A stretch of DNA of 64,000 nt from Candidatus Kaelpia imicola (lineage in GTDB: Bacteria; Omnitrophota; Gorgyraeia; Kaelpiales; Kaelpiaceae): NCBI GenBank assembly GCA_030765505.1, contig JAVCCL010000004.1, forward strand, positions 35,933 to 99,932. Reading direction: 5' to 3'. The position numbers and the translations under genes were made by a program. Numbering within the stretch: position 1 is the first letter of the stretch; every line of letters starts with the position of its first letter. Below are positions 39,489 to 56,344 of the stretch, piece after piece. The notes under the pieces were generated by a model. It did no database searches. It was not told where the DNA came from and saw only the letters and a program-made list of their open reading frames with translations.

Positions 39489-42400
39489 ATGGTAAATGTG
39501 ATGAGCAAAATAAAGTTTTTCATATTTGGAGTAGTGATTTTATTCTCTATAAATGGAAATATTCTGTCTACTTATCGTTATAATAACGTACGCAGGACTA
39601 AAAGCATAACTGCTGTATCTGAGGAAGGTATCCATTCTATTATTGAAATAATTCTCCAGGCTGTTGATTTTGAAAGTGAAGGTGATATTCTTATTTCTCA
39701 GAAGGGTATCTTCCTAAATGGAAATTGTATATCTCCTTCACCCAACCTTGGTTCTATCGGAGAACAAAGTTTCCAACTTCCCCAACCGTTTAAAGAACTG
39801 GCAATTCGAATAATAGGAGTCTATTCAGGTCTTTCTCAAGGCGAATTGCAGGAGGTTATGAGAAGCTGGAATAAACATTACGCTTTGGCAGCTCTTGGCA
39901 CAGAGGAAGCTGTTCGGACTATTTTCAGGTCAGTACCGTATCTAACAAGCAGTGCTGTATCAACAATTGAACATATAATAAAAAATGACTTTGGTTTTAG
40001 AGATGCAGCAGCATCTCTTTTGAAGCGCCCTGATTTAAATGAAGAAGGGGTAATTGCATTGCGTAAAGCTGTCGAATGTGAAGATTTAGAGCTTGAAACC
40101 CGTGTTTGTGCCATTGCATGTTTAACAAAACTGTTAAACTTAGGAGCTAGAATATCTGCTTTAGATAATTTACGCAGTGAGACAATTCAATGGCTTAATG
40201 ACTGTAAAGAAAAGTATGCGTCTTCGGAGCTGGTGAATTCATTTAAAGTTGCATTGAGCGGTATTTATGCGGTCTCTTTAGAGGAAGGTTTGGATTTAGA
40301 TTGTTTTGGCCCCGGCATAGTAGAATTTAGTTCGGAAAGAGAGCTTAATTTATATGATAAAGGACCTGTGTATGCTGAAAGAATTATTCAAGCTTTAGTT
40401 ACTCAAAAAAAGTATGATTTAATGTTAGAGGTCTTAAAAAATAATAGTAGTTATATAGAAAATAGGATTACTGTATTGGATCCTATTGCATCAGGAATAA
40501 CTGAAATGCCGGATTCAGTTTGCAACCGGATTATAGACTTTATAATTGCAAATGTTTCTGATGTTACAGATAAGAATGCGCTGGTTACTTTATTACATAT
40601 CGCTGCTCCTGATGTAGAAAAGGCGCAAAAGCTTATTCAGTACCTTATTACAAGATATGAAAATTTAGCAGAAGTACCTGTGTTTAGTTTTAATAGCCCT
40701 GAACTATTACAGGCTCTTAAAGAGCTTCTTTACAGCCCCACAATCTCTGCAGTATGGGAAGATGTTACGCATCTAATTAAAGTTATTCCGCATCCGTTTA
40801 CTCCCTATATTACAAGAGAACCTTTTTTTGGCTCAGGAGAAGCTACATCTTCAAACTCTGATACTTTGGTAATGGTTTCAAGAAACTTGGATGATACTTA
40901 TAAAACCCCTCTTATGAGTTATCAAAGGATTATGCTTCATGGGCACAAGAATTATGTTTCTCCTTCTAATATGAATGTAGCAATTGTAGAGGGGGTTTTA
41001 AATTTTTGGTTAACCGGTGATATCGAATGTATAAGAAATCTGCCTCACATAGAAAGTGAAGGAACTATTAAAAATATTATGGATGATAATTTGGATACAT
41101 ATGTTTCTACTCATCAGGAAGTTCTACAGGGACTTTTTCATACGCTTCAAATTGATAATGTCCAGGACTTACAAAAATTCAGTATCGAGGAAATAGCGGC
41201 TGCTTGTACAGAAGGAAAAGTTTTAGAAGAGATAAAACTGTATTTTAAGGTATTGAATAAATATCAGGGCGGGGTGGCTGCTAATGTACGTAAGGATTTA
41301 CAAAGCATAGAAATGCAGGGTTTAGTATGGGATGATTATCCTCCTCAGATACATCAGCTTTTTAATGATTTTATTGCATCCTGGGAATCTGCAGAAGATT
41401 CAGAAAGCCTTATTGCCGCAGCAGATAGACTCCAGCGTCTTATGTTGTCTGTGCAGGAATTTTGTGTTTCTGAAATTGAACCTGCAAAGAATCCTTTTGT
41501 AAAAATAGTAGTTCATAAAGATTTAGAACGGCTGGAGTTCAAAGACCCTAAATTTACTATGTTAAATGTATTGTACTATAAGCTTATTCTAGCTCAAGAA
41601 TCTATATATTCAAAAGTGTGGAATTCATTAGCAAGTCTGGAATCATTAAACAGAGAAGGATTAAGCTCTGCATTGGGATTTTTGAAATCTTTAACGGACA
41701 GCCTTGAAGAGCAGGGGTATATTAATGATTCTGTAATACAGGGTGTCGTGGAGGCAATTACTGAGGATATGCCGTACAGTATGTTGATAGACCATATTAT
41801 GTGGTGCAAACAGAATATTTATAACCCTTTATATAGTATGTTCTTAAAGAATGTTTTACAGATTGACGGTTTGAGTGATGATTATCTGCGGGACAGGGAA
41901 ATAGCAGTTCCTTGCTTAGAATATTTTAGGAAAGTTCTTGGTTATCTTCATGATGGGTTAAGTAATTCTCAGATATTAAAAGCAGAGCTTTTAGGTAATT
42001 TGGCTCCGGAGTTTGTGTTAATTCAGCAAAGCAAATCATTGTCACCGCTGGATATCGGTAATAAAGCATGGTCGTTAAATTATCTGAATCAAAACGGTTT
42101 CCAGGCTCCGGAAGCTGCAGTAATTACTAAAGAAGTTATCATGAATTGGGAAAATATGTCTGAGGTAGAAAGGCATGATATCATAGGTAAAATTGTATTG
42201 GAACTGGAACAGCGTACGGGGAAAGAATTCGGCCGCAATTTGCTTTTTTCTGTGCGAAGTTCTCCGGTTATACCGCATCCAGGGGTGCTTTTGACAATGC
42301 TTGATGTCGGTATGAATGAATCAGTTGTGGAAAATCTTATAGCAGAAATACAGGATGAAAGATTTGCCTGGGAAAATTATCGTGTTGCTGAATATATGTG

Positions 42401-43580
42401 GGCAGTAGAATATTTAGGAATTAAAGACGAAAATTTAAGGCAGGTAATAAATAGGGTAAAAGAAGCGCATGGAGTTGAAACTAAAAAGCAATTAAATGTT
42501 GATGCCATAAAAGAAGTCATCTATGAGTATGGGCAGTTGATAGATCAAGTTAGAGAGGATAGTCTTAGTAGTGGAAGTTTAGAGATAGGAGAGGACCCTA
42601 TGAGCATGAGTTCTTACGAACAGCTGTATCTTGCAGTTGTTCTTGCTGTTAAGTCCTATAATTCAGAAGCTGCTCAGTCGTATCGAAGGAGTGTTGGTAT
42701 TCCTGAGGACAGCGGTATGGGTATTATTATACAGGCTATGAGTTTCGGGAATTATTCTCAATCCTTATCCGGCGCTGGAACAGTGAATGTTACTGCCGAT
42801 GGTGAAATAAGAGGAACTTTTAACGAGTGTTCTTTGGGGGTAGACATAATGTCTGGTCTTTCCCGGGCAGGTATTCCTGTCAGCAATATGGGGACCGGCG
42901 ATGCTTCAACATCGACACTGGAATTTCTTTATCCGGATGTTTATAAAGAACTTTATACCGCATTGTTTGGAGATCCGGATACCGCAAAGGTAGGTATTTT
43001 TGACCTTTTTGGAAGGCAGCCTATACAGTATGAGTTTGTTATTGAACAAAATAAGATTGTTTCTCTTCAGGTTAGGACTTTAGCTGAAGAAGAGATATAT
43101 GATAGGAAACAGCTTAATTATGTAGAAATACCTTCAAGTGTTCCGGCATTAGGCAGAGGTATTTTTATCGGAAACAGGGCTGTAAAGGGTTATGTCATTA
43201 CAATAGATGATTATCTTGATCAGGGCAAACGTGCAGAGTTAATTGCGAAGGTAGATTCTGACCCTGACATTGACGGGCTGATTTTAGCAACAAGTGAGAT
43301 TAAAACTGCAGTCTTAGGGCCAATTTTACAGGATGCTTATATTTTAGGGTTCTTTAGCAACGTAGGGTATGAGGTTTCTCATGGAATTTCTTTGGCAATA
43401 CGTTATCATATATCCGCATTATTAGGTGTCCGGAATTTAAGTCACGATTTTACAACAGATGAATATACTTTTAAAGTAGGGAGTCAGCAAATAGTGCTTA
43501 AATCAGGTGATATAGTTACTATTGATACAGATGGTAAGTTATATCAGGGTGCCTATCCAATATATCCAATCGAGCAATAA
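39489..43580 (+). CDS. Giant membrane-anchored protein with C-terminal PPDK/PEP-synthase-like ATP-grasp plus phosphohistidine (PEP-utilizing mobile) domains
   Basis: 1363 aa; N-terminal hydrophobic anchor. IIIQAMSFGNYSQSLSGAGTVNV...GEIRGTFNECSLGVDIMSG resembles the V.VQ.MVFGN...SGV.FTR.P.TGE...GE.L.NAQGEDVVAG nucleotide-binding block of pyruvate phosphate dikinase. VSHGISLAIRYHISALLGV resembles the TSHAAI.ARE.GIPAVVG swivelling-His domain. Confidence 0.55.
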   Translation: MVNVMSKIKFFIFGVVILFSINGNILSTYRYNNVRRTKSITAVSEEGIHSIIEIILQAVDFESEGDILISQKGIFLNGNCISPSPNLGSIGEQSFQLPQPFKELAIRIIGVYSGLSQGELQEVMRSWNKHYALAALGTEEAVRTIFRSVPYLTSSAVSTIEHIIKNDFGFRDAAASLLKRPDLNEEGVIALRKAVECEDLELETRVCAIACLTKLLNLGARISALDNLRSETIQWLNDCKEKYASSELVNSFKVALSGIYAVSLEEGLDLDCFGPGIVEFSSERELNLYDKGPVYAERIIQALVTQKKYDLMLEVLKNNSSYIENRITVLDPIASGITEMPDSVCNRIIDFIIANVSDVTDKNALVTLLHIAAPDVEKAQKLIQYLITRYENLAEVPVFSFNSPELLQALKELLYSPTISAVWEDVTHLIKVIPHPFTPYITREPFFGSGEATSSNSDTLVMVSRNLDDTYKTPLMSYQRIMLHGHKNYVSPSNMNVAIVEGVLNFWLTGDIECIRNLPHIESEGTIKNIMDDNLDTYVSTHQEVLQGLFHTLQIDNVQDLQKFSIEEIAAACTEGKVLEEIKLYFKVLNKYQGGVAANVRKDLQSIEMQGLVWDDYPPQIHQLFNDFIASWESAEDSESLIAAADRLQRLMLSVQEFCVSEIEPAKNPFVKIVVHKDLERLEFKDPKFTMLNVLYYKLILAQESIYSKVWNSLASLESLNREGLSSALGFLKSLTDSLEEQGYINDSVIQGVVEAITEDMPYSMLIDHIMWCKQNIYNPLYSMFLKNVLQIDGLSDDYLRDREIAVPCLEYFRKVLGYLHDGLSNSQILKAELLGNLAPEFVLIQQSKSLSPLDIGNKAWSLNYLNQNGFQAPEAAVITKEVIMNWENMSEVERHDIIGKIVLELEQRTGKEFGRNLLFSVRSSPVIPHPGVLLTMLDVGMNESVVENLIAEIQDERFAWENYRVAEYMWAVEYLGIKDENLRQVINRVKEAHGVETKKQLNVDAIKEVIYEYGQLIDQVREDSLSSGSLEIGEDPMSMSSYEQLYLAVVLAVKSYNSEAAQSYRRSVGIPEDSGMGIIIQAMSFGNYSQSLSGAGTVNVTADGEIRGTFNECSLGVDIMSGLSRAGIPVSNMGTGDASTSTLEFLYPDVYKELYTALFGDPDTAKVGIFDLFGRQPIQYEFVIEQNKIVSLQVRTLAEEEIYDRKQLNYVEIPSSVPALGRGIFIGNRAVKGYVITIDDYLDQGKRAELIAKVDSDPDIDGLILATSEIKTAVLGPILQDAYILGFFSNVGYEVSHGISLAIRYHISALLGVRNLSHDFTTDEYTFKVGSQQIVLKSGDIVTIDTDGKLYQGAYPIYPIEQ

Positions 43581-43596
43581 TATTTTCTTAATCAAC

Positions 43597-43626
43597 CTTG
43601 ACAACTTAAGGAGTTCGTGCTATAAA
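43597..43626 (+). promoter_or_regulatory. pyr operon promoter (TTGACA -18- TATAAA)
   Basis: Consensus -35 with good -10. Confidence 0.6.
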
Positions 43627-43640
43627 TCTCTAGACCTTTA

Positions 43641-43661
43641 AACTGGTTCGGTGAGACCGGG
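43641..43661 (+). promoter_or_regulatory. Putative PyrR-binding loop in the pyr leader
   Basis: aactggTTCGGTGAGAccggg approximates the UCCnGnGAGG PyrR recognition motif within a potential hairpin. Confidence 0.35.
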
Positions 43662-43705
43662 AAGGTGAAAGAGATGAATAAGAATATAAGTTTCAATGAT
43701 GAAAA

Positions 43706-43734
43706 GAGGCCCTTCAAAGAGGGTTTATTTTTTT
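43706..43734 (+). terminator. pyr leader attenuator (short hairpin plus U-tract ending at the pyrR start codon)
   Basis: gaggccctt-caaa-gagggttt followed by atttttttt, ending 1 nt before the ATG at 43735. Confidence 0.45.
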
Positions 43735-44292
43735 ATGTCTAAGAAAATCATAGAACGTTCGAAGGTTTTAGATTCAAAACAACTCTATAAGACTGTCTGC
43801 CGTATAAGTCATGAAATAATAGAGAGAAATAAGTCTTTATCGAATATAGCTATTGTAGGCATAAGGACAAGAGGTGTCTATTTAGCAGATAGAATAGTAA
43901 ATAATATTTTTGAGATTGAGGGTGTAAAGATTCCGTCAGGAGTACTTGATATTACGCTCTACAGAGATGATCTTACTTTGATAGCAGAACAGCCTCTGGT
44001 TAAGGAGACAGAGCTTAACTTCGATATCAATGGTAAGCTGATAATAATAGTAGACGATGTGTTATTTACAGGCAGGACTGTTAGGTGCGCAATGGATGCT
44101 TTGATTGATTTTGGTAGACCCAGAGCTATTCAGCTTGCTGTTTTGGTTGACCGGGGTCACCGTGAACTTCCAGTAAGAGCAGATTATGTAGGTAAGAATG
44201 TACCGACCTCTCTTAGTGAATCTATAGAGGTAAGATTAAAAGAGGTTGATAAGAAAGATGAGGTTGTGATGTTGGAGGTAGTTGATGGCTGA
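43735..44292 (+). CDS. pyrR: Bifunctional pyr mRNA-binding attenuation regulator / uracil phosphoribosyltransferase
   Basis: MSKKIIE...[14 protein letters not shown]...DITLYRDDL...[12 protein letters not shown]. Confidence 0.9.
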
Positions 44293-45274
44293 GGATATTG
44301 TTGAAAGAGATATCAAGTGGAGTAAGAAGCATCTTCTTGGCATTGAAGATCTAACCGTAGAGGAGATAGGTTATATATTACAGCTTGCCAAATCTTTTAA
44401 GGAGATCTCAACCCGGCAGGTCAAGAAGGTCCCTGCTTTAAGAGGTAAAACAGTTGCTTTTCTATTCTTTGAACCCTCAACAAGAACCAGGATATCTTTT
44501 GAGCTTGCAGCTAAAAGGCTCTCAGCTGATACTGTGAGTTTCTCAGTCTCGACATCCAGTGTACAGAAAGGGGAGAATCTTAAGGATACAGCCCGCAATA
44601 TAGAGGCTATGAATGTTGATATTATAGTCTTAAGGCACCCAGCTTCCGGAGCTGCCCATTATCTCTCCGGGGTTGTATCGGCCGGTGTTATAAATGCCGG
44701 AGATGGGACACATGAACATCCAACTCAGGCTCTGCTTGATGTCTTTACCATCCAGGAGCAGAAAAAAAACATTGCAGGGTTAAGAATTGCTATCTTGGGT
44801 GATGTCTCTCATTCAAGGGTGGCAAGGTCTAATATATTTGCTCTTAAAAAATTAGGTGCTGAGGTTACACTCTGTGCGCCGCCAACAATGATTTTGCCTG
44901 AGTTTAAAGAGCTGGGCGTAGAGGTTTCATATGATCTTAAGGATGTTTTGGCCAAAGCCGATGTTTTAAATATCTTGAGGATACAGAGAGAGCGCATCAA
45001 TGAAAACCTGATTCCTTCAATAGCTGAATACAGAGAGTTTTTCGGTGTAGATAGAGCTAAGCTTTTAAAATATGCAAAGCCGGGATTACTAATTCTTCAT
45101 CCGGGTCCGGTAAATAGAGGAATTGAGCTAAGCCCTGACGTGCTTGACGAGGGATTGCTGGAGAAGAATATCTGCAGCGTTGTTTTAAATCAGGTTACAA
45201 ATGGCCTGGCGATCAGAATGGCGATACTCTATCTTATTGCAGGTATGGGAGGCAGCGTTGAAGTTACTGATTAA
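44282..45274 (+). CDS. pyrB: Aspartate carbamoyltransferase catalytic subunit
   Basis: STRTR motif ([11 protein letters not shown]); HPTQ. Confidence 0.95.
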
Positions 45275-46556
45275 AAATGGTTCGGTTATTGATTTAGAGA
45301 AAAAAGTTTTTAAAAAAAATGATATCTTGGTTCAAAATAAGAGAATCTCTAAGATAGCTAAAAATATAAAAGAGAAGGCGAATTTAGTAGTTGATGCTGG
45401 AGGATGCTATATCTTTCCAGGACTTATTGATATCCATGCTCATCTAAGAGAGCCAGGCCGGGAAGATGAGGAGAATATAGAGTCCGGTTCTCGTGCGGCT
45501 TTAAGAGGGGGTTTTACAACACTCTGCTGCATGCCCAATACAGATCCTGCTATAGATAGTGCCGGTCTGGTAAGATTTTTAAGAGAACGTTCTAAGAGCG
45601 TAGGCCTGGTAGATATTTATCCAGTGGGAGCTATTACAAAAGGAAGGGCTGGCTTGGAACTATCTGAGATGATTAAGATGAGAGAGGCAGGAGCTGTTGG
45701 TTTTTCAGACGATGGCAGCTGGGTTAATAGCCCGCTTCTTATGCGTAGAGCTATGGAGTATTCTGTTCTCTCCGGCTTACCTCTAATTATCCACGCCGAA
45801 GACGAGAGACTCTCTATCGGCGGCCTGATGAATGAAGGTATATTTTCTCTTAAGATGGGACTAAAAGGGTATACCGCGGGAGTCTGAGATAGTAGCCATT
45901 GCAAGAGATATAGAGCTCACTAGGCTAACAGGAGCCAGGATTCACTTTACGCATATAAGCTGTAGGGAATCTGTAGAGCTTATAAGAAAAGCTAAGAAAG
46001 ATAAGTTGATGGTTACTGCGGATGTTACTCCTCACCATCTAACTTTAACTGAAGACTCTGTTAGGGATTATAATACTTTTTCTAAGGTCAATCCCCTATA
46101 AGGACAGAGAAGGATAGGGGAGCTTTAATCAATGGATTAAAAAATAATACTATAGATATAATTGCTACTGACCATGCTCCGCATTCAAGCGAAGAGAAAG
46201 ATTGTAATTTCTCCGAGGCAAGTTTCGGTACTATAGGACTGGAGACAGCATTATCTTTAGGTCTAAAGTTAGTCAACGAAGGTAAGATAGATATCTTTTC
46301 TTTAATAGAGAAGCTTACTTCCAATCCCGCCAGGATATTCTCCTTTAAAGATAGAGGGAATATCTTAGAGAACTATTTGGCTGATATCATAGTAGTAGAT
46401 CCAGATCTAAAGTGGAAGTTTAGTCAGGAAGATATTGAATCTAAAAGTAAGAATTCCCCATTTTTAAATATGGAGTTGAAGGGAAGAGCTAGAACTGTTG
46501 TTTCAAAAGGCAGGGTTTTGGTTGATGACTTTAAATTGATTGGAGATTGTTTATGA
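45258..46556 (+). pseudogene. pyrC: Dihydroorotase, disrupted by two compensating 1-nt frameshifts as given
   Basis: Three collinear DHOase segments: frame 0 to 45887 (...DIHAHLREPG...KGYTAGV*), frame +1 from 45886 (EIVAIARDIELTRLTGARIHFTHIS...), back to frame 0 from 46098 (IRTEKDRGALINGL...DHAPHS...). The second shift lies in a C homopolymer (aatcccctata versus the expected N-P-P-I codons). Confidence 0.6.
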
Positions 46557-46651
46557 GGTTTTCTAAGGTGGTTTTACCGTCAGGGGGTTAATATTTTAGA
46601 CACGACTCCTCAGGCCAGAGAGATGTTGAAGGAGTCTCAATTAAATGAGTA

Positions 46652-47107
46652 ATGAAGTTTATACTCAGCCCTGAATTGGGAAGGTTGACCAAGTGGTTAA
46701 GGATTTTAAGTTATGACTCTTATTATTTTAAAGGCAGCAGCAGAGCTCTTATTCTGAAAGCTCTAAAAGAGGATAGAGTTGTTTTAACTTCTATAGTCTC
46801 TTTGGCTGATGAGCTCAAGGCAAAAGTCTTTATAATTAAATCTCAAGATTTAAGAACTCAACTTAAAGAACTTGAAGAGAGTTTTGGTTTAGAAATCGAT
46901 AGCAGTAATATGTTTTCACGCTGTATCAGGTGTAATTTAGAGTTAAAAGAATTAACCAGAGAACAAGCCGAAGAGAAGGTCCCCGTATCTATCTATCAAA
47001 GCAGGGTGAGTTTTTACAAATGTTCTAAATGCAAAAAAATATTCTGGACTGGCAGCCATTGGAAGTTGGCTAAGGAATATTTAGAGAGTATCAATGATAA
47101 TAGCTGA
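46652..47107 (+). CDS. Mut7-C RNase domain protein (PIN-like N-terminus plus Zn-ribbon)
   Basis: LGRLTKWLRILSYD N-terminal motif; C-terminal CIRCN...CSKCKKIFWTGSHW. Confidence 0.6.
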   Translation: MKFILSPELGRLTKWLRILSYDSYYFKGSSRALILKALKEDRVVLTSIVSLADELKAKVFIIKSQDLRTQLKELEESFGLEIDSSNMFSRCIRCNLELKELTREQAEEKVPVSIYQSRVSFYKCSKCKKIFWTGSHWKLAKEYLESINDNS

Positions 47108-48323
47108 TATACATATCCATTCTAAGTATAGCCGTGCAGCAAGCAAAAATATGGATCTGGATAATTTAAGTGAGTTTGCCAAGATTAAAGGAGTAGACCT
47201 CTTAGGTAGCGGCGACTTTACCCATTTCTTATGGCTGCAAGAGTTAAAGACGAAATTAAAAGAAGCTGGCTATGGAGTATATAAATATAAAGGAATTAAC
47301 TATATATTAACCGTTGAAGTGTCAAATATCTATTCTTATAAAGGGAGAGTTAGAAAGATTCATAATCTTATTATTGCGCCTGACTTTACCGCAGTTGATA
47401 AGATAAACAGAGAACTTGCTAAATATGGGAGTTTAACTGCGGATGGCAGGCCTACGCTAAGTTTGGATGTCAGGAGCCTTATGGAGATCGTTCTCTCTGC
47501 TAATAGCGACTGTTTTTTGATACCTTGTCATATCTGGACTCCATGGTTCGGCCTCTTTGGTGCCAATTCGGGTTTTGATTCTATAGAAGAGTGTTTTGGT
47601 CCTTACGTAAAAGATATCTATGCTTTGGAGACCGGTCTCTCAAGTGATCCAGCTATGAATTGGCGGATATCGGATTTAGATAGATATACCCTTGTATCTA
47701 ATTCCGATAGTCATTCTCCTTCAAAGATAGGGCGGGAAGCAAACGTTTTAAATATAAGTATGGATTATAGAGAACTTCTGGAGGCATTGAAAAACAGAGA
47801 CTCCGGAAAATTTGCCTATACAATAGAGTTTTATCCTCAGGAGGGGAAGTATCACTTGGATGGTCATAGAGGTTGCGGGCTTTCGTTTAGCCCTAAAGAG
47901 TCTATGCGTTTGAACAATATATGTCCCAAATGCAGCAAACCATTAACTATTGGGGTGATGCATAGAGTAGAGGAGCTTGCAGACAGGGAGGATGGATTTA
48001 TGCCTAAAGGGGCAGTTGGTTTCAAGAGCTTGGTACCGTTGGATGAGATTATCGCAGAGTTAAAAGGTGTTCAGAAAACAGCCAAGGCGGTAATAGTAGA
48101 ATATCATAGCTTGATTCAAAGCTATGGTCCGGAATTAAAAATATTAAGTGAGCTTGATGAGAAATTTCTAAAGAATAATCTGCCTGTAAAGATAGCCAAA
48201 AGTATTATAGCCGTTAGAGAGGGCAGGGTTAAGATTAAACCGGGTTTTGACGGTCTTTACGGTAATGTCAAAGTCTTTGATGATAAGAAAATGAAGAGCG
48301 AGAAGCAGTTAACCTTTTTTTAA
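47094..48323 (+). CDS. Endonuclease Q-like PHP-domain nuclease (TIGR00375 family)
   Basis: ADIHIHSKYSRAASKNM, GKYHLDGHRGC and Zn-finger CPKCSKPLTIGVMHRVEELAD align with my recollection of archaeal EndoQ motifs. Confidence 0.75.
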   Translation: MIIADIHIHSKYSRAASKNMDLDNLSEFAKIKGVDLLGSGDFTHFLWLQELKTKLKEAGYGVYKYKGINYILTVEVSNIYSYKGRVRKIHNLIIAPDFTAVDKINRELAKYGSLTADGRPTLSLDVRSLMEIVLSANSDCFLIPCHIWTPWFGLFGANSGFDSIEECFGPYVKDIYALETGLSSDPAMNWRISDLDRYTLVSNSDSHSPSKIGREANVLNISMDYRELLEALKNRDSGKFAYTIEFYPQEGKYHLDGHRGCGLSFSPKESMRLNNICPKCSKPLTIGVMHRVEELADREDGFMPKGAVGFKSLVPLDEIIAELKGVQKTAKAVIVEYHSLIQSYGPELKILSELDEKFLKNNLPVKIAKSIIAVREGRVKIKPGFDGLYGNVKVFDDKKMKSEKQLTFF

Positions 48324-48419
48324 AAATAACTCTTCTTGTTTTGTTTCTTTTTTTGTGATATAAAGACGAAACTTAATAAATGGTAGCTTGAAAGAGAATA
48401 TATAAGAAGGGAGTGAGGT

Positions 48420-49223
48420 ATGCCTGAGTTGCCGGAAGTTGAGACAATACGCAGAGAGTTAAGAAGCTTGATTCAGAAGAAAAAGATCACGGATTTTGAG
48501 GTTAGAGACAAGATCTTTCTTAAAAAGCCTAAAACAGTCTCTTCCTGGAAAAAGATACTCTCTTCCAAGATAAAGGATGTAGAGAGAAAGGGTAAGTTTC
48601 TGATCTTTAAACTTAGCAATGGGCTGAAGATAGTTGTGCACCTTAGAATGACAGGTCAGATAATATATGGCAATAATCATGATGCCAAAATTAAAATTGT
48701 ATTTTCAGATTTAAGTACCCTTAGTTATTATGATAGAAGAAGATTCGGTGAGTGGTTTTTGGTAAAAGATATAAAAGATGTGCCTCTGCTTGGAGCCATA
48801 GGTATTGATCCTACAAGTGAAGAGTTTACTCCTGAAGTTTTGAGTGAGATATTAAAAAATAAGAGTACTAAGGTCTACAATCTTCTTTTAGACCAAAAAG
48901 TTATATCTGGAATAGGCAATATATATGTAAATGAGATACTGTATCGCTCCAAAATAAGCCCTTTCAGAAAGACCAGGGATATTACCGAGCCTGAGATTAA
49001 AGAGCTCTGTTTCTCTATAAGAGATATACTTCTCAAAGCGCTTAAAGCCAGAGGTTCTTCAATAGATACCTATTTGGATATTTGGGGTAACCCGGGTAAA
49101 TATGCCTATCAGCATCTTGTTTACGGAAAAGATGGCCATTTTTGTGAACACTGTCCTAATAAGATTATGAAGAGCAAGATGAACTCTAGATCGATCTATT
49201 ATTGTCCGGGATGTCAACAGTAA
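48420..49223 (+). CDS. mutM: Formamidopyrimidine-DNA glycosylase
   Basis: MPELPEVE N-terminal catalytic Pro; C-terminal zinc finger CEHCPNK...YYCPGCQ. Confidence 0.9.
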   Translation: MPELPEVETIRRELRSLIQKKKITDFEVRDKIFLKKPKTVSSWKKILSSKIKDVERKGKFLIFKLSNGLKIVVHLRMTGQIIYGNNHDAKIKIVFSDLSTLSYYDRRRFGEWFLVKDIKDVPLLGAIGIDPTSEEFTPEVLSEILKNKSTKVYNLLLDQKVISGIGNIYVNEILYRSKISPFRKTRDITEPEIKELCFSIRDILLKALKARGSSIDTYLDIWGNPGKYAYQHLVYGKDGHFCEHCPNKIMKSKMNSRSIYYCPGCQQ

Positions 49224-49987
49224 CTAAAGATTTTAGAAAAGTAAAAATATTTTCTAATTCCGAGTTTTATCCCGGATATTTTCTACTCTCTTTTGAAACC
49301 CCGGAAGTTTTTTCTGTTAATCCGGGGCAGTTTCTTCAATTACGATTAGTAGAGAAGGGTCAGTTTTTGAGGAGACCTTTTGGAGTCTTTGACCAGAGAG
49401 ATAACCGTATTGAGATTCTTTACAAAGTAAGAGGGGATATAACTCAGAAGATGTCTTTACTTAAAACAGGAGATGAGCTGGATATTATATGTCCTCTAGG
49501 TAACGGGTTTAAAGAGCCGAACCGAAAGAGGCCGATTATTGTAAGCGGCGGTACAGGCTTTGCTCCGCTTGGTTTTCTTGCAAGGAGTCTCTCCTCTAAG
49601 GCTGAAGATAGAGGGATATTTATTATTGGAAGTGCAGGGGCTGAGAGTGAAAAATTTGCTGAATCTATAAGCTCTTTGGATATAGACTCTTTAGTTGTCT
49701 CTGAAGACGGCAGTGTAGGAAAGAGAGGAGTGGCGACCGATTATCTGGCTGGTATTATTAAGCCTGGTTCTGTTCTGTTTTCGGCTGGCCCCGTTGAGAT
49801 GTTGAAAAATATTTATAAAATAGCTGAAGATAAAGAGATTGAGACTCAATTTTCTTTTGAATCTCACTTTGCCTGCGGTATGGGTTTCTGTTGGGGCTGC
49901 GCTTTAAAGACCAGGAATGGAACTTTAAGAGTATGTAAGGATGGTCCTGTTTTTAAAGGAGAAGATATTCTATGGGAAGAGTTATGA
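49202..49987 (+). CDS. pyrK: Dihydroorotate dehydrogenase electron-transfer subunit
   Basis: FAD/NAD ferredoxin-reductase fold; 2Fe-2S cysteines CGMGFCWGC...C. Confidence 0.85.
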   Translation: MSGMSTVTKDFRKVKIFSNSEFYPGYFLLSFETPEVFSVNPGQFLQLRLVEKGQFLRRPFGVFDQRDNRIEILYKVRGDITQKMSLLKTGDELDIICPLGNGFKEPNRKRPIIVSGGTGFAPLGFLARSLSSKAEDRGIFIIGSAGAESEKFAESISSLDIDSLVVSEDGSVGKRGVATDYLAGIIKPGSVLFSAGPVEMLKNIYKIAEDKEIETQFSFESHFACGMGFCWGCALKTRNGTLRVCKDGPVFKGEDILWEEL

Positions 49988-50904
49988 TTCCGGTTGAGAT
50001 TGCTTCTTTAAAACTAAGAAGTCCTGTTGTCCTCTCTTCAGGTTGTGTGGAGTATAGCCCCTCTGTGAGTGATATCGTTCCGTTTAGTAAGATCGGTGCC
50101 ATTATAACAAAGACAGTTACTCTTAGAGAATGTCCCGGCAATCCTATGCCCAGAACATCCGAGGTAGATTTTGGGTTAATAAATTCTATAGGTTTGCAAA
50201 ATAAAGGTCTGGATGATTATCTTGGTAGGATTTTACCGCAAATAAGAGAATCGCTTGATTGCCGAATCATTACCAGCATATCTGGTTTTACAATTGAAGA
50301 GTTTGCTAATATTGCTGCTGCTGTAGATAAAGAGGATGCGGTCTCTGCTATTGAGGTTAATATATCCTGTCCAAACCTTGAAAAAGATAGCGAGGGCGGG
50401 TCGGCTATCTTTGCCCAGGATGAACATATGAGTTATGGTGTTATAAAGGCTGTCAGGGAGTCATCGTCTAAACCTGTAATAGCTAAGCTCTCTCCCGATG
50501 TTACAGATATACGTTCTGTTGCTCAGGCTGTCTCTGATGCCGGAGCTGATGCAATAACCGTTGCGAATACCTATTCAGCTATGGCTATAGATATATATAC
50601 GAGAAAACCGAAAATAGCTAAGGTATCAGGGGGATTGAGCGGCCCTGCTATTAGACCCCTGACATTAAAGAGGGTCTGGGATGTATATAATACCGTAGAT
50701 CTGCCAATCATTGCCTCCGGCGGTATCATGGATTATAAGGACGGTTTGGAGTATATTATTGCGGGTGCGGCCCTTTTAAGTATAGGTACTGCTAATTTCA
50801 TAAACCCCGGCGTTGCGGAAGAGGTAGCCGAAGGTATAGAGAGTTATCTTAGAGAGAGAGGGATAGAGTATAAAGATTTAATTGGGAGTCTTAAAATTGG
50901 ATAA
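49972..50904 (+). CDS. pyrD: Dihydroorotate dehydrogenase (class 1B catalytic subunit)
   Basis: TIM-barrel DHODH; SNTY-like TVANTY; GGI. Confidence 0.9.
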   Translation: MGRVMIPVEIASLKLRSPVVLSSGCVEYSPSVSDIVPFSKIGAIITKTVTLRECPGNPMPRTSEVDFGLINSIGLQNKGLDDYLGRILPQIRESLDCRIITSISGFTIEEFANIAAAVDKEDAVSAIEVNISCPNLEKDSEGGSAIFAQDEHMSYGVIKAVRESSSKPVIAKLSPDVTDIRSVAQAVSDAGADAITVANTYSAMAIDIYTRKPKIAKVSGGLSGPAIRPLTLKRVWDVYNTVDLPIIASGGIMDYKDGLEYIIAGAALLSIGTANFINPGVAEEVAEGIESYLRERGIEYKDLIGSLKIG

Positions 50905-51592
50905 GAGAAAAAAGATAATAATTGCGCTTGACGTAGATAGCATCGATGATTTGCGTTACTATCTTGATATGTTAGCCCCCTATGTGAAAACTTTTAAAAT
51001 AGGACCTCGCCTCTTTATTCCTTATGGTAGAGAGGTGGTAGACCTTATAAAGGGCTATGGTTCAGATGTCTTTTTAGACCTTAAGCTGCATGATATTCCT
51101 ACTCAGGTTGCAGAGAGCGTGAAAAAGATTGGAGATTTGGGAGTTAAGATGTTTACAGTTCATGCTTTTGGCGGTAAGGTTATGATAGAAAATTCAAGAG
51201 AGGCTCTAGATAGTTTTGATGAAAAAGAGAGACCGTTGATGCTTGCAGTAACCCTTCTTACCAGCATTGACGAAAATGACTTGCATTTTTTAGGTTTTAA
51301 AAATAAAATTAATAACATGGTTTATAAACTTGCTGAATTAGCTTTAACTTCCGGAGCTGATGGTGTTGTCTCTTCCGCGGCAGAGGTCAGAAGGTTAAAA
51401 GAAGGGATAAGCCGGAGCTTTATATCAGTTGTTCCGGGTATAAAGATAGGCGTTGCGAATAGAGACCAGAAGAGGAGCGGTTCGCCGCAAGAGGCATTTG
51501 ACAATGGAGCCGATTATATTGTTATCGGCAGATCTATACTTAATGCAGATAATCCTGTAAAGATAGTTAAGGAGGTATTAGATGAACGATAA
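50882..51592 (+). CDS. pyrF: Orotidine 5'-phosphate decarboxylase
   Basis: ALDVD...DLKLHDIPTQV catalytic Lys motif. Confidence 0.9.
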   Translation: MGVLKLDKRKKIIIALDVDSIDDLRYYLDMLAPYVKTFKIGPRLFIPYGREVVDLIKGYGSDVFLDLKLHDIPTQVAESVKKIGDLGVKMFTVHAFGGKVMIENSREALDSFDEKERPLMLAVTLLTSIDENDLHFLGFKNKINNMVYKLAELALTSGADGVVSSAAEVRRLKEGISRSFISVVPGIKIGVANRDQKRSGSPQEAFDNGADYIVIGRSILNADNPVKIVKEVLDER

Positions 51593-52163
51593 AGAACTTA
51601 TGGGAATTTTAAATGAGACAGGGGCTATTCAAGGTGGACACTTCTTATTATCCAGCGGTTTACATTCGGAGCAGTATATCCAGCTGGCTCGTATTTTTCA
51701 ATATCCTAAACATACTTCACGTATAGCCAATGCATTAGTAGAAGATTTTAGGTTCGAAAGACCTGCCGTTATAATTGGCATTGCACATGGGGGTACTATT
51801 TTGGCTTATGAAGTTGCAAGAGCTATAGGTGCAAGGGCAATGTTTGCAGAGCGCTTTAAAGGAGAACTCTGTTTGAAGAGGGGTTTTGAGATTAAAAATA
51901 GGGAGAGAGTTTTGATAGTTGAAGATGTGCTTACAACAGGGAAATCAGTTTTGGAATTAAAATCGCTGCTTAAGAATTTTCAGCCGCTGATTGTAGGAGT
52001 CGCTTCTGTTATAGACCGTTTTGATGGAGAGTTTAAGATAAGAAATAAATATTCATCTCTTATGAAATATGCCCTCCCGGTGTACTCTAAAGAGGAGTGC
52101 CCTCTATGTAAAAAGGATATACCGCTGCTTAAACCCGGGAGCAGGGAGATTGTGAACGCATAA
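51582..52163 (+). CDS. pyrE: Orotate phosphoribosyltransferase
   Basis: PRPP-binding VLIVEDVLTTGKS. Confidence 0.85.
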   Translation: MNDKELMGILNETGAIQGGHFLLSSGLHSEQYIQLARIFQYPKHTSRIANALVEDFRFERPAVIIGIAHGGTILAYEVARAIGARAMFAERFKGELCLKRGFEIKNRERVLIVEDVLTTGKSVLELKSLLKNFQPLIVGVASVIDRFDGEFKIRNKYSSLMKYALPVYSKEECPLCKKDIPLLKPGSREIVNA

Positions 52164-52216
52164 TCGTTCTTACTTCTGCTATAATTTAGAAGCAAAAAAA
52201 TGACCGGAGGATTAAT

Positions 52217-52828
52217 ATGGAAGTTAGATTAGATGGACTAATTGAAAAGATAAAAAAAGAGGGTGTTCAAGAAGCTAAAAACGAAGCCGGTAAAATTGTA
52301 GCCAAAGCCGAAGAAGAGGCTGTCCGCATCTTGCAAGAAGCAAAGTCTAAATCCGAGGTTGTTATTCAAGATTCAAAATCTCAGTCTGATAAATATAAAG
52401 ATGCAGCTAAAATCGCAATAGAACAAGCAGCGAGAGATTCAATTATAAGCTTAAGAGAGAAGATAGTAGCTGTATTTGACGATCTCTTAAAGAGAGATGT
52501 TTCAAATTCCCTTAGTCCTCAGGCAGTTAAGGATATGATTACCCGGATTTTATCTAATTGGAAGCCGGGGAAAGATGACTCTATTGAGATTTTAACTTCA
52601 AAAAGAGATAGGGACTCTTTAAGAGATTTGCTGATTGATGAATTTAAGGAGAAAATAGCAGCTGGTTTTGAGGTTAAGATTCACCCGGGGTTAAAGAAGG
52701 GTTTTAGAATCGGGATAAGAGGCGAAGATATGCATTATGATTTTTCAGATCAGGGTATAGCTGATACTATTGCTCTCTTTCTCAATGAAGAGATAAGAGA
52801 GATAGTGAATAAAAGTTTAAATGGATAG
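52217..52828 (+). CDS. atpE: V-type ATPase subunit E
   Basis: Long charged coiled-coil N-terminus; position at the head of the V-ATPase operon. Confidence 0.7.
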   Translation: MEVRLDGLIEKIKKEGVQEAKNEAGKIVAKAEEEAVRILQEAKSKSEVVIQDSKSQSDKYKDAAKIAIEQAARDSIISLREKIVAVFDDLLKRDVSNSLSPQAVKDMITRILSNWKPGKDDSIEILTSKRDRDSLRDLLIDEFKEKIAAGFEVKIHPGLKKGFRIGIRGEDMHYDFSDQGIADTIALFLNEEIREIVNKSLNG

Positions 52829-53330
52829 GTACTATTATCTGATATCCCAGCTTCCTCTATTGGATTTTGATGGTAAGAATTATATCAGCAGTGACTACTT
52901 TTTAGAGCAGGCAGCCAAGTGGTTGAGCCCTGCAGATTTCAAGGTTTTAAAAAAAGCGAATATAGATGATATCTATGTTAGCGATAGCGATAAAGGTATC
53001 GTAAGAGAGTATAAGAGTTTTGAATACAATTTAAGAGATAATATTGTTAAATTCAGGGAAGGCAGTTTAGAATCTATAGTTGATGAAAACTTGAAAGCGG
53101 TTTTAGTTAATACAGATCCTCTTAAAATTGAGCTGGAGATATTCTATCTGAGGTGGAGTTTCATTGACCAAATTGGATCATATCATCATTTTGATTTAGA
53201 GAGTACAGTGGTTTACTTCTATAAGCTTCAGATTTTAGATAAGATTTCCCAGTTTGATAAAGAGAGAGGGAAAAAGTTATTTAACAGCAGTTCAAACATT
53301 AGTTACGAGGCGGTAGTCTATGAAAGTTAA
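52821..53330 (+). CDS. Hypothetical protein in the V-ATPase operon (DUF2764-like, as in chlamydial E-x-A-B-D-I-K operons)
   Basis: 169 aa; positional equivalence with the hypothetical gene between atpE and atpA in Chlamydia-type V-ATPase operons. Confidence 0.4.
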   Translation: MDRYYYLISQLPLLDFDGKNYISSDYFLEQAAKWLSPADFKVLKKANIDDIYVSDSDKGIVREYKSFEYNLRDNIVKFREGSLESIVDENLKAVLVNTDPLKIELEIFYLRWSFIDQIGSYHHFDLESTVVYFYKLQILDKISQFDKERGKKLFNSSSNISYEAVVYES

Positions 53331-55080
53331 TAGAGGCAGCATTCTATCTATAAGCGGGAACATGATAACTGTAAAACCGCAAAGTCATATCATGCAGAAT
53401 GAGTTGGGCTATGTTTTAAAAGGAGAGCAGCGTCTTAAAGCCGAGGTTATTAAGATCAGAGGAGAGGCAGCGTATATGCAGGTTTTTGAGGATACCAAAG
53501 GTCTTAGAGTAGGAGATGAGGTTGAATTCAGCAATCAGCTTCTTTCGGTTGAACTTGGACCGGGTCTTCTGGGCAGTATATACGACGGTTTGCAGAATCC
53601 TTTAAATATTCTTGCTGATGAGTATGGATTTTTTTTACCTCGAGGAGTCGATATAGCAGCTTTGGATCTTAAAAAGAGATGGCATTTTACCCCTCTTGCT
53701 AAGGAAGGAGATCTATTGTTGGCCGGAAACTATATTGGTTATGTAGAAGAAGAGATTTTTAAGCATTATATAATGGTGCCTTTTGATCTTAGCGGAGAGC
53801 ATCTTCTTGAGAGTCTGAAGCCTGAGGGTAATTACAGTGTTAAAGATACTATAGCTACGGTAAAAGACAGATCAGGCAATAGTGTTGATATCACCATGTC
53901 TTTTCGCTGGCCTATAAGAGTGCCTATTACTTCATACAGGAAGAGGCTTCAGGCTATTGAGCCGTTAACTACGCGTATTAGGATAATTGATACTTTCTTT
54001 CCTGTGGCTAAGGGGGGGACTTATTGTATTCCCGGTCCTTTTGGGGCTGGGAAAACAGTATTGCAGCAGTTGACTTCAAGATATGCTGAGGTTGATATTG
54101 TAATTATTGCTGCCTGCGGTGAGAGGGCAGGTGAGGTCGTTGAGACGTTAAGAGAGTTTCCAAAACTTAAAGATGATAGGACTGGTAAGTCTCTGATGGC
54201 GAGGACAATAATCATCTGTAATACCTCTTCTATGCCTGTTGCTGCCAGAGATGCTTCGGTATATACTGCGGCAACTCTCGGGGAATACTATAGACAGATG
54301 GGTTTGGATGTACTGCTTCTGGCTGACTCTACTTCACGTTGGGCTCAGGCGATGAGAGAGGTTTCAGGCAGGCTGGAGGAGATCCCGGGCGAAGAGGCTT
54401 TTCCGGCTTATTTGGAATCGCGTATAGCTGCTTTCTATGAAAGGTCTGGCGTGGTTGAACTTTTAAACGGAGAGAGCGGGTCTCTTACAATAGGAGGAAC
54501 AGTATCCCCGGCTGGCGGTAATTTCGAAGAACCTGTTACCCAATCAACATTAAAGGTTGTCGGAGCTTTCCATGGCTTATCCCGCGAGAGGTCTGATGCC
54601 AGAAAGTACCCTTCTATATCCCCTCTGGAGAGTTGGTCCAAATATAGGAGCTTTATTGTAGAGGATATAGTAGCTTATGCCAAAGAAGTGATATTTAAAG
54701 GCGATGAGGTTTTTCAGATGATGAAGGTTGTTGGCGAAGAAGGTGTGGCAGATGAGGACTTCTTAATATATCTGAAATCCGAGTTTTTAGATTATGTCTA
54801 TTTACAGCAGAATGGTTATGATAGAGTGGATGCTGCTACGCCTCTAGAGCGCCAGGATTATGTTTTTTCAAAGGCTGACTATATCCTTAGATCTAAAGTT
54901 AATTTAGAAACAAAAGATGAATTAAGAGCTATCTTTTTTAAATTACGTCAGATGTTTCTGGACTGGAATTATACCAAGTGGAATTCTTCGGAATTCAAAA
55001 GCAAAGAAAAAGAGATAGATGAATTTATTAAAAGAGAGGTTTTAAAGAAAGATGAAGAAGCTGTACAGCAAGATAGATAG
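53320..55080 (+). CDS. atpA: V-type ATPase catalytic subunit A
   Basis: Walker [10 protein letters not shown]; 586 aa. Confidence 0.95.
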
Positions 55081-56344
55081 TATTGTAGGAGATGTTATCA
55101 CTGTAAAAGCTAAAGGTATTAGTTATCATGAGCTGGCCGAGGTGAACACTAAAAAGGGAAAGTCTTTTGCTCAGGTTATAAGTTTAGATAGAGAGAATGT
55201 CTCTCTTCAGGTTTTTTCGGGAAGCCGAGGCATATCTACTGCTGATGAAGTTAGTTTTCTATCTCATCCTATGCAGGTTCCTTTTTCGGAGGATATGCTT
55301 GGAAGAGTCTTTGACGGCAGCTGCAGGCCAAAGGATGGAGGGCCTGCTATAATCGGAAACAATATTGAGATAGGCGGTTCTACAGTCAATCCTGCAAAGA
55401 GGAAGATACCAGACCGCATGATAAGAACCAATATACCTATGATAGATATTTTTAATTCTCTAGTTGTTTCTCAGAAGCTTCCTATATTTTCAGTCTCTGG
55501 CGAACCTTACAATGAGCTTTTAGCTCGAATTGCAATACAGGCTCAGGTTGATATAATCATTTTAGGCGGTATAGGTCTGAAGTTCGATCAGTATATGTTT
55601 TTTAAGAATAGACTGCAGAGTAGCGGTGCTTTAAGCAGGTCAATATTTTTCGTGCATACCGCTTCTGAACCAGTAGTAGAGAGCATTATGATACCGGATA
55701 TATCTTTGGCTGTAGCTGAGAAGTTTGCTTTATCGGGTAAGGATGTGCTGGTTCTACTTACAGATATGACTAACTTTGCCGATGCGCTTAAAGAGATTGC
55801 CATTACTATGGAGCAGGTTCCTTCAAATAGAGGTTATCCTGGAGATCTCTATAGTCAATTAGCAGCCAGATATGAGAAGGCTGTGGATTTTGAAGATAGC
55901 GGTTCTATTACAATACTTGCAGTTACAACCATGCCGGGTGATGATGTTACCCACCCGGTTCCGGATAATACAGGTTATATTACCGAGGGCCAGTTCTATC
56001 TTCGTAATGGCAGAATAGAACCCTTCGGCTCTTTAAGCCGGCTGAAGCAGCAGGTCAATGATAAAACTCGTGTTGATCACAGGGCTATTATGAATGGCAT
56101 GATACAACTATATGCTGATTATAAGGAGACAGAAGAAAAAAGAGACATGGGTTTTAAGATGAGTGTTTGGGATCAAAAACTTCTTAAGTATGGAGCTGTC
56201 TTTGAAAAGGAGCTGATGGATCTATCTGTGAATATACCTTTGGAGACTGCCCTGGATAAAGGATGGCAGATTCTCTCGGGATGTTTCCAGCCTGAAGAGG
56301 TTCCATTTCGGACTGAATTGATCAAAGAGTTTTGGCGAGGCTGA
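55052..56344 (+). CDS. atpB: V-type ATPase subunit B
   Basis: Non-catalytic alpha/beta fold; 430 aa. Confidence 0.9.

Follow-up and report, generated by a model that had tools for sequence, protein, structure and literature searches.

The 64,000-nucleotide (nt) stretch of Candidatus Kaelpia imicola DNA analysed here (contig JAVCCL010000004.1, positions 35,933 to 99,932; hereafter, the window) contains three intact repair-type genes on the + strand at 46652–49223, encoding a Mut7-C domain protein, an Endonuclease Q (EndoQ)-like protein, and MutM/Fpg, between pyrC and pyrK. Upstream of the trio are pyrR, pyrB, and pyrC; downstream are pyrK, pyrD, pyrF, and pyrE, followed by V-type ATPase genes. 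We consider it probable (roughly 70%) that the locus is a pyr "super-operon" of the kind typical of the phylum Omnitrophota, in a form that is compacted in Kaelpia. Specifically, one PyrR-binding leader would control a + strand run comprising pyrR-pyrB-pyrC, a guest slot, and pyrK-pyrD-pyrF-pyrE. The guest slot in Omnitrophota regularly contains EndoQ just after pyrC, often with a dedicated Mut7-C gene before EndoQ, followed by flavodoxin-like, SLOG, carA, carB, and YjbQ genes, and finally by MutM just before pyrK. The middle genes of the slot are missing in Kaelpia, such that Mut7-C, EndoQ, and MutM became neighbours.

EndoQ follows pyrC in pyr operons across Omnitrophota

We surveyed EndoQ relatives in one genome per GTDB species and examined the neighbours of the best 80 loci. 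At least 596 species genomes contain a confirmed EndoQ relative, and the matches listed include Omnitrophota, Patescibacteria, WOR-3, Aminicenantes, Nitrospirota, Thermodesulfobacteriota, DPANN archaea, and other lineages. The order pyrR-pyrB-pyrC-EndoQ-...-pyrK-pyrD-pyrF-pyrE is present in ~20 Omnitrophota-type genome loci among the best 80 (some of these records bear other taxonomic labels), and dozens of metagenomic loci likewise have EndoQ placed between pyrC and pyrK. A preliminary description of the locus, made from its sequence alone, had placed the trio correctly, as tightly spaced, same-strand genes embedded in the pyr operon, with exact coordinates; its further statements that the embedding is unusual and that bacterial EndoQ has a patchy distribution do not hold, since the placement is largely the rule in this lineage and the distribution is wide.

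The pyrC-EndoQ junction is kept between genomes whose EndoQ proteins are only ~50–60% identical. In relatives, the interval from EndoQ to pyrK contains flavodoxin-like, SLOG cluster-4, carA, carB, YjbQ, and MutM genes, and sometimes a gene for a PEMT-like membrane protein. MutM often sits directly before pyrK in Omnitrophota relatives, and in most relatives a distance of 2–5 kb, occupied by carA/carB and unrelated genes, separates EndoQ from MutM. Neither carA nor carB is present anywhere in the 64-kb window, and neither is present in the same slot in the sister species K. aquatica (locus L087, 10457–10644). The trio is thus adjacent in Kaelpia because the intervening carA/carB, flavodoxin-like, and SLOG genes are absent. 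The same three-gene contiguity is seen in locus L112, with an EndoQ 72% identical to that of the window. Recent horizontal insertion of the trio was considered and ruled out, the GC content and skew being unremarkable and the arrangement being ancestral in the phylum. We found no literature linking EndoQ with Omnitrophota or with pyr operons.

At the non-Omnitrophota EndoQ loci there are no pyr neighbours; HIT, Pol X, or SLOG genes are found instead. In particular, outside the pyr context a HIT-family gene is located directly upstream of EndoQ in six loci (L030, L037, L044, L054, L079, L081), and a Pol X gene (with a PHP domain) is located within ~3.5 kb of EndoQ in six loci, mostly from Patescibacteria (L031, L036, L047, L053, L059, L060). 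SLOG cluster-4 (LOG-like) genes are found repeatedly in the vicinity of EndoQ, in many cases behind a flavodoxin-like gene, in Omnitrophota and some Patescibacteria (L006, L008–L012, L015, L026, L029, L040, L065, L080, and most of L101–L171), and this association may be broader than the pyr context. On one Omnitrophota chromosome (CP070807; L026, 15843–16376), a dCTP-deaminase/dUTPase-like gene is present in a run with Mut7-C, EndoQ, carB, YjbQ, and MutM.

The trio is not a fixed unit within the genus Kaelpia

The genus Kaelpia was described from Ace Lake, Antarctica (PMC8542988). K. imicola, an uncultured member of Omnitrophota, is represented by a metagenome-assembled genome. The pyr operon of K. 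aquatica is 81–88% identical to that of the window at the nucleotide level, and in three independent assemblies (L087 from NCBI, and L088 and L089 from two JGI samples) Mut7-C is followed directly by MutM. The segment corresponding to window positions 47142–48269 is missing, and ~48 nt from the start and ~54 nt from the end of endoQ remain (L087, 10440–10660), indicating a clean, recent deletion of endoQ. The Mut7-C-to-MutM arrangement without endoQ is also present on a Kaelpia-like contig (L094), and the deletion is listed for L088, L089, and L092–L094. Conversely, a LolA-like (DUF2092) gene located between pyrC and Mut7-C in K. aquatica, L083, L084, and L112 is missing from the window, where position 46582 joins L087 position 9931, skipping L087 9278–9930. 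The endoQ deletion in K. aquatica and the loss of the LolA-like gene in the window indicate that the trio is not a fixed unit even within the genus.

Layout of the pyr operon

The leader, genes, and spacers of the operon are as follows.

43631–43735, + strand: probable PyrR-binding leader RNA (attenuator), just before pyrR; Rfam RF00515
43735–44292 (longest open reading frame (ORF) from 43696), + strand: pyrR, regulator/uracil phosphoribosyltransferase family; Pribosyltran E = 1.7e-22
44282–45274, + strand: pyrB, aspartate carbamoyltransferase; orthologue of OTCace-domain genes in relatives
45201–46556, + strand: pyrC, dihydroorotase, interrupted; NCBIfam dihydroorotase models match the N-terminal half only
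46557–46651, + strand: 95-nt spacer from pyrC to Mut7-C, without a terminator-like site
46652–47107, + strand: Mut7-C domain protein, 151 amino acids (aa); PF01927 E = 1.6e-36
47094–48323, + strand: Endonuclease Q family protein, 409 aa; PDB 5ZB8 E = 1.4e-53
48324–48419, + strand: 96-nt spacer from endoQ to mutM, conserved in K. aquatica by alignment
48420–49223, + strand: MutM/Fpg, formamidopyrimidine-DNA glycosylase/AP (apurinic/apyrimidinic) lyase, 267 aa; TIGR00577 272 bits
49202–49987, + strand: pyrK; ORF with pyrK family matches and orthologous order in relatives
49972–50904, + strand: pyrD; ORF with orthologous order in relatives
50882–51592, + strand: pyrF; ORF with orthologous order in relatives
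51582–52163, + strand: pyrE; ORF with orthologous order in relatives

The genes are tightly packed. Mut7-C overlaps EndoQ by 14 nt, MutM overlaps pyrK by 22 nt, and pyrK, pyrD, pyrF, and pyrE each overlap the next gene; the 95-nt and 96-nt spacers are the only gaps at the locus. The MutM/pyrK and Mut7-C/EndoQ overlaps suggest translational coupling. The real start of pyrR is probably the ATG at 43735, which gives a 185-aa product, the same as the K. aquatica orthologue; the longer ORF from 43696 begins within the PyrR leader and terminator.

The upstream neighbour of the trio is pyrC, as first described, but the gene is not intact. Relative to the intact K. aquatica gene, one nucleotide is inserted at 45870 (+1) and one is missing at 46094 (−1), 224 nt further on, such that the sequence between them is out of frame and has a stop at 45885–45887; the rest of the gene shows no other decay, and tblastn returns three collinear pieces in two frames. 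Either an assembly artefact or a pseudogene of very recent origin could account for the double frameshift. The truncated product has no database record, and the two other contigs with an identical EndoQ are too short to cover pyrC.

The + strand carries all 54 ORFs of at least 150 aa in the window, and every profiled bin (40000–56000) has a positive GC skew, suggesting a long co-oriented stretch on the leading strand. Directly upstream of the pyr leader, a 1363-aa ORF (39489–43580) has only a weak match to PPDK_N, an ATP-binding domain. K. aquatica has a 316-aa HMGL-like gene at this position, and both flanks are 84–86% identical.

A probable PyrR-binding leader precedes the operon

The RF00515 match in the window scores 36.5 bits (E = 0.036), below the gathering score of 54, and is the sole Rfam match in 43000–52500. 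RF00515 is also the sole Rfam match, at the same place just before pyrR, in four of four relatives (46–51 bits), supporting the window match as real. A terminator-like hairpin at 43707–43726, followed by the T-run ATTTTTTTAT, is located inside the leader. No terminator-like site was detected in either internal spacer (46557–46651 and 48324–48419), and no scored promoter-like site was detected in the endoQ-mutM spacer. The lack of terminator-like sites in the spacers makes co-transcription of all genes from pyrR to pyrE likely. Co-regulation of the trio with pyrimidine supply is plausible.

The pyr gene order is the same as in the Bacillus subtilis-type operon (pyrR-pyrP-pyrB-pyrC-pyrAA-pyrAB-pyrK-pyrD-pyrF-pyrE), with carA and carB present in the relatives, and the Kaelpia operon, too, would have a PyrR-binding leader with a terminator hairpin. 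The B. subtilis operon has three attenuators, whereas one leader was detected in Kaelpia; the Kaelpia operon further differs in lacking pyrP, in containing repair genes and other guests, and, in the window, in lacking carA/carB and having a frameshifted pyrC. In Bacillus, PyrR bound to uridine mono- or triphosphate (UMP/UTP) promotes termination. Read from the pyr transcript, the trio would have levels that follow PyrR sensing of UMP/UTP; if PyrR acts here as in Bacillus, scarcity of pyrimidine nucleotides would raise expression of the trio.

The PHP protein is an EndoQ relative of a distinct clade

The 409-aa protein matches Pyrococcus furiosus EndoQ (PfuEndoQ; PDB 5ZB8) with E = 1.4e-53 in a phmmer search of the PDB (query 3–397 on chain residues 4–385, ~33% identity). 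P. furiosus EndoQ chains are its only solved relatives, with all three domains aligned, and it is 100% identical to a K. imicola NCBI entry named "endonuclease Q family protein". It comprises a PHP catalytic domain, a putative HCCC zinc domain, a helical domain at the C-terminus, plus a C-terminal QLTFF motif of the clamp-binding type. The motifs by which it had first been recognised as an EndoQ relative are present: IHIHSKYSRA (residues 6–15), GKYHLDGHRGC (residues 251–261), and CPKC...HRVEELAD. Histidinol phosphatase and Pol X PHP identities were ruled out, there being no Pfam PHP match and only EndoQ chains matching in the PDB. The hidden Markov model (HMM) assignment proposed for TIGR00375 fell short, with 177.5 bits against a trusted cut-off of 326.6 although the whole profile is covered, which argues for a distinct EndoQ-family clade and against close orthology with the archaeal enzymes.

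The residues shown to be important in PfuEndoQ by Miyazono et al. (PMC5961232) have counterparts in the Kaelpia protein. In particular, the metal ligands His8, His10, Glu76, His84, His139, Asp193, and His195 correspond to H7, H9, E75, H90, H146, D205, and H207; the lesion-pocket residues Thr142, Glu167, Gly169, Leu170, and Asn191 correspond to T149, E179, G181, L182, and N203; and the wedge residue Trp144 corresponds to W151. Across 81 EndoQ relatives, none of the seven metal ligands varies and the pocket residues hardly vary, while the wedge Trp is replaced by His in 15 bacterial sequences. All four positions of the zinc site are filled (Cys249, Cys252, Cys268, and Cys271 of PfuEndoQ correspond to H258, C261, C277, and C280), but the first is His, not Cys, in all 81 bacterial and DPANN relatives. 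These relatives, with HCCC as putative zinc site, thus form a clade separate from the C4 enzyme of the crystal structure.

The protein ends in ...EKQLTFF, with QLTFF encoded at window 48306–48320. A Qxx[LFM][FLIV] C-terminal end is present in 65 of 74 bacterial-labelled EndoQ relatives, while a PIP-like QxxLxxF[FL] terminates the protein in six DPANN archaeal relatives. A beta-clamp motif in a few bacterial EndoQ homologues was already noted by Shiraishi et al. 2016 (PMC4858679); we therefore do not present it as new, and our survey extends that remark.

Compared with the characterised enzymes from P. furiosus, Thermococcus kodakarensis (5ZB8, 7K30), and Bacillus pumilus, the Kaelpia protein shares the three-domain layout and full-length collinearity. 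The metal ligands of the PHP domain, the residues of the lesion pocket, and the wedge Trp are also common to them, as is a motif of the clamp-binding type at the very end of the chain. The Kaelpia protein differs in that it has, like its clade, the putative HCCC zinc site, in that its own tail is a bacterial beta-clamp-type QLTFF instead of a PIP box, in that its gene lies within a pyr operon and forms a pair with a Mut7-C gene, and in that its clade is known from sequence alone. B. pumilus EndoQ is reported, as cited in PMC6202378, to nick DNA containing deoxyuridine (dU), deoxyinosine (dI), or an abasic (AP) site. By homology, the Kaelpia protein would nick DNA 5′ of dU, dI, deoxyxanthosine (dX), or abasic sites, and would probably be held on the beta clamp by its C-terminal QLTFF.

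Some Omnitrophota EndoQ genes are longer. Those at L090 2157–4478 and L091 1854–4175 encode a 773-aa product with a LAGLIDADG_3 match, and L111 and L153 have split matches; the insert is probably an intein.

A Mut7-C subfamily is linked to EndoQ

The 151-aa protein matches PF01927 with 126 bits against a gathering score of 23.3 (E = 1.6e-36), so that this HMM assignment stood. We compared it with 152 retrieved homologues, mostly top representative matches, giving a set of 153. The C4 zinc ribbon (C91, C94, C124, and C127) is invariant or nearly so across the set. As in stand-alone prokaryotic Mut7-C proteins, an N-terminal alpha/beta domain precedes the zinc ribbon, and the family residues R17, D22, R42, T46, Q70, N95, and H136 are retained.

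The subfamily differs from the rest of the family in the segment after strand 1, where it has Thr/Ser-x-Glu in place of Asp-x-Met, and in its tight linkage to EndoQ. Position 6 is Asp in 121 of the 153 members and position 8 is Met in 103; the Asp after strand 1 is the sole active-site residue conserved family-wide (PMC5499597). The window protein has Ser6 in its place. In the 21 members with Thr or Ser at position 6, including the window protein, position 8 is acidic in every case (Glu in 20, Asp in one), and this perfect covariation suggests that the carboxylate has moved rather than been lost. The description of the protein as a PIN-like nuclease is accordingly uncertain, the family active-site Asp being Ser here with a covarying Glu two residues on.

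To define the genomic setting of the subfamily, metagenome contigs were scanned with the pattern ELG[RK]Lx[KR]WLR, yielding 287 confirmed relatives, of which the best 80 loci were examined. EndoQ is the next gene downstream in 63 of the 67 Thr/Ser-x-Glu Mut7-C loci with at least 450 bp of downstream sequence, with inferred gaps mostly of −10 to +50 nt, and pyrC is nearly always upstream where upstream sequence exists. Three of the four exceptions are Kaelpia contigs. In ~55 EndoQ loci outside Omnitrophota, no Mut7-C gene was found beside EndoQ. That Mut7-C mostly occurs with EndoQ, but EndoQ often without Mut7-C, points to an accessory role, and, judged from these patterns, the Thr/Ser-x-Glu Mut7-C is a probable EndoQ accessory. 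It would most likely be an EndoQ-specific one, either a nucleic-acid-binding helper or a nuclease trimming the lesion-bearing 5′ end.

We found no literature linking this subfamily with EndoQ, and none of the prokaryotic Mut7-C proteins has had an activity demonstrated (PMC11347159, PMC5499597). Linkage to repair has a precedent in Haloferax, where the Mut7-C gene is located downstream of Pol X (PMC5499597). In eukaryotes, the MUT7-C domain is an RNA binder that supports a neighbouring exonuclease (PMC11347159); in Caenorhabditis elegans MUT-7 and human EXD3 it is an RNA-binding appendage of a DEDD exonuclease, unlike the Kaelpia gene. A PDB sequence search with the window protein gave no match, and a Foldseek search of the PDB with its AF2 model (pLDDT 74.9) returned only generic Rossmann-like folds (best E = 0.09).

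MutM has the features of a canonical Fpg

MutM scores 272 bits against TIGR00577, above the 203-bit cut-off, in agreement with its first identification as Fpg, and contains Fapy_DNA_glyco and H2TH domains. It aligns end-to-end with 1TDZ (E = 6.9e-47), including the N-terminal PELPEVE and the C-terminal CxxC...CxxC. The equivalog score, the PELPEVE N-terminus, the H2TH domain, and the C4 zinc finger are all common to the Fpg/MutM proteins of Lactococcus lactis, Geobacillus, and Escherichia coli, and the Kaelpia protein differs only by the position of its gene, which overlaps the start of pyrK in a pyr operon. On this sequence evidence it is classed as a canonical Fpg, and it would remove oxidised purines independently of the other two proteins.

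Evidence against an Omnitrophota-type super-operon and alternative readings

Several observations weigh against a compacted, functional Omnitrophota-type super-operon. The de novo pyr set in the window is incomplete, with pyrC frameshifted and carA/carB absent, and the operon might not be a working pyrimidine pathway here. The mutM spacer holds a TGATATAAA-type −10-like element, seen by eye only, and internal promoters may exist within the operon. The proposed partnership is not obligate: among the best 80 EndoQ loci, many Omnitrophota have EndoQ without Mut7-C, and Mut7-C is kept after the loss of endoQ in K. aquatica and on a second Kaelpia-like contig. The window Mut7-C departs from the family at near-invariant positions (G20S, R47S, D/N48I) and is the fastest-evolving of 11 genes, with a dN/dS of 0.23 versus 0.05–0.18. 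The other genes in the slot are unrelated to repair, which weakens any functional reading of the embedding, and the surveys took EndoQ or Mut7-C as their starting point instead of pyr operons, and are biased to that extent.

The preliminary description took the trio for one dedicated damaged-base processing module, inserted in the pyr operon to couple pyrimidine supply to repair. All three proteins act, or could act, on nucleic acids, the genes are contiguous in the window and L112 and lie behind a probable PyrR leader, and a dCTP-deaminase-like gene is present in the same run on one Omnitrophota chromosome. However, MutM is tied to pyrK and is separated from EndoQ by carA/carB and other genes in most relatives, many operons hold EndoQ without MutM or without Mut7-C, the sister species deleted endoQ alone, and the adjacency in the window is explained by loss of intervening genes; we therefore regard a single module as distinctly unlikely. 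A reading in which the repair genes are pure passengers, fixed by descent in a long, stable operon at a position without regulatory or functional meaning, is a possible if less likely account. LolA-like, PEMT-like, flavodoxin-like, and YjbQ genes also occupy the slot, EndoQ occurs without pyr linkage outside Omnitrophota, and endoQ was lost without other change. Yet the pyrC-EndoQ junction persists despite extensive divergence of EndoQ, MutM overlaps pyrK, and Mut7-C overlaps or abuts EndoQ. The passenger reading bears solely on what the position means, and most of the super-operon reading could stand alongside it.

Two further alternatives concern the proteins themselves. Mut7-C, the EndoQ-like protein, or both might act on RNA or nucleotides, for example in pyr mRNA processing or, as a PHP phosphoesterase, in nucleotide salvage: the animal MUT7-C domain binds RNA (PMC11347159), Pfam labels the Mut7-C family an RNase domain, the structure closest to the EndoQ PHP domain is that of a nucleotide phosphoesterase (PMC5961232), and the setting is a nucleotide-metabolism operon. 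The DNA-nicking activity reported for B. pumilus EndoQ argues the other way, and we consider such a role very improbable. A decaying Kaelpia Mut7-C that no longer functions with EndoQ is also unlikely, though the substitutions and the top dN/dS noted above, the loss of endoQ in the sister species, and the mere 43% identity to the L112 Mut7-C (while the two EndoQ proteins are 72% identical) would fit it. The Mut7-C ORF is nonetheless intact in both species and on a third Kaelpia-like contig, purifying selection is still evident from the dN/dS of 0.23, and the zinc Cys residues together with E8, D22, R42, T46, Q70, N95, and H136 are retained.

Implications

EndoQ is still described as confined to Euryarchaeota and a few bacteria (PMC8438529). 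Our survey reveals EndoQ to be widespread in uncultured bacterial and DPANN lineages, in the form of an invariant His-Cys3 variant. The near-obligate Mut7-C/EndoQ pair provides a first concrete, testable functional lead for prokaryotic Mut7-C. EndoQ and MutM are kept inside an operon under probable PyrR control across the phylum, raising the question of whether repair and pyrimidine supply are co-regulated in these very small cells. If the position reflects inherited gene order only, the locus amounts to an ordinary annotation of three known families. What we consider worth keeping, as functional hypotheses, are the linkage of Thr/Ser-x-Glu Mut7-C with EndoQ and the conserved position, downstream of a probable PyrR leader, of two genes for base-damage repair.

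A bolder proposal, which we put forward as speculative and on balance improbable, is that Omnitrophota deliberately place dU/hypoxanthine incision under the PyrR UMP/UTP sensor, with Mut7-C as a dedicated second enzyme that removes the lesion-bearing 5′ end left by EndoQ. If true, EndoQ-initiated repair would be tuned to the pyrimidine pool, prokaryotic Mut7-C would have its first assigned function, and the pair would constitute a bacterial two-protein alternative excision repair system.

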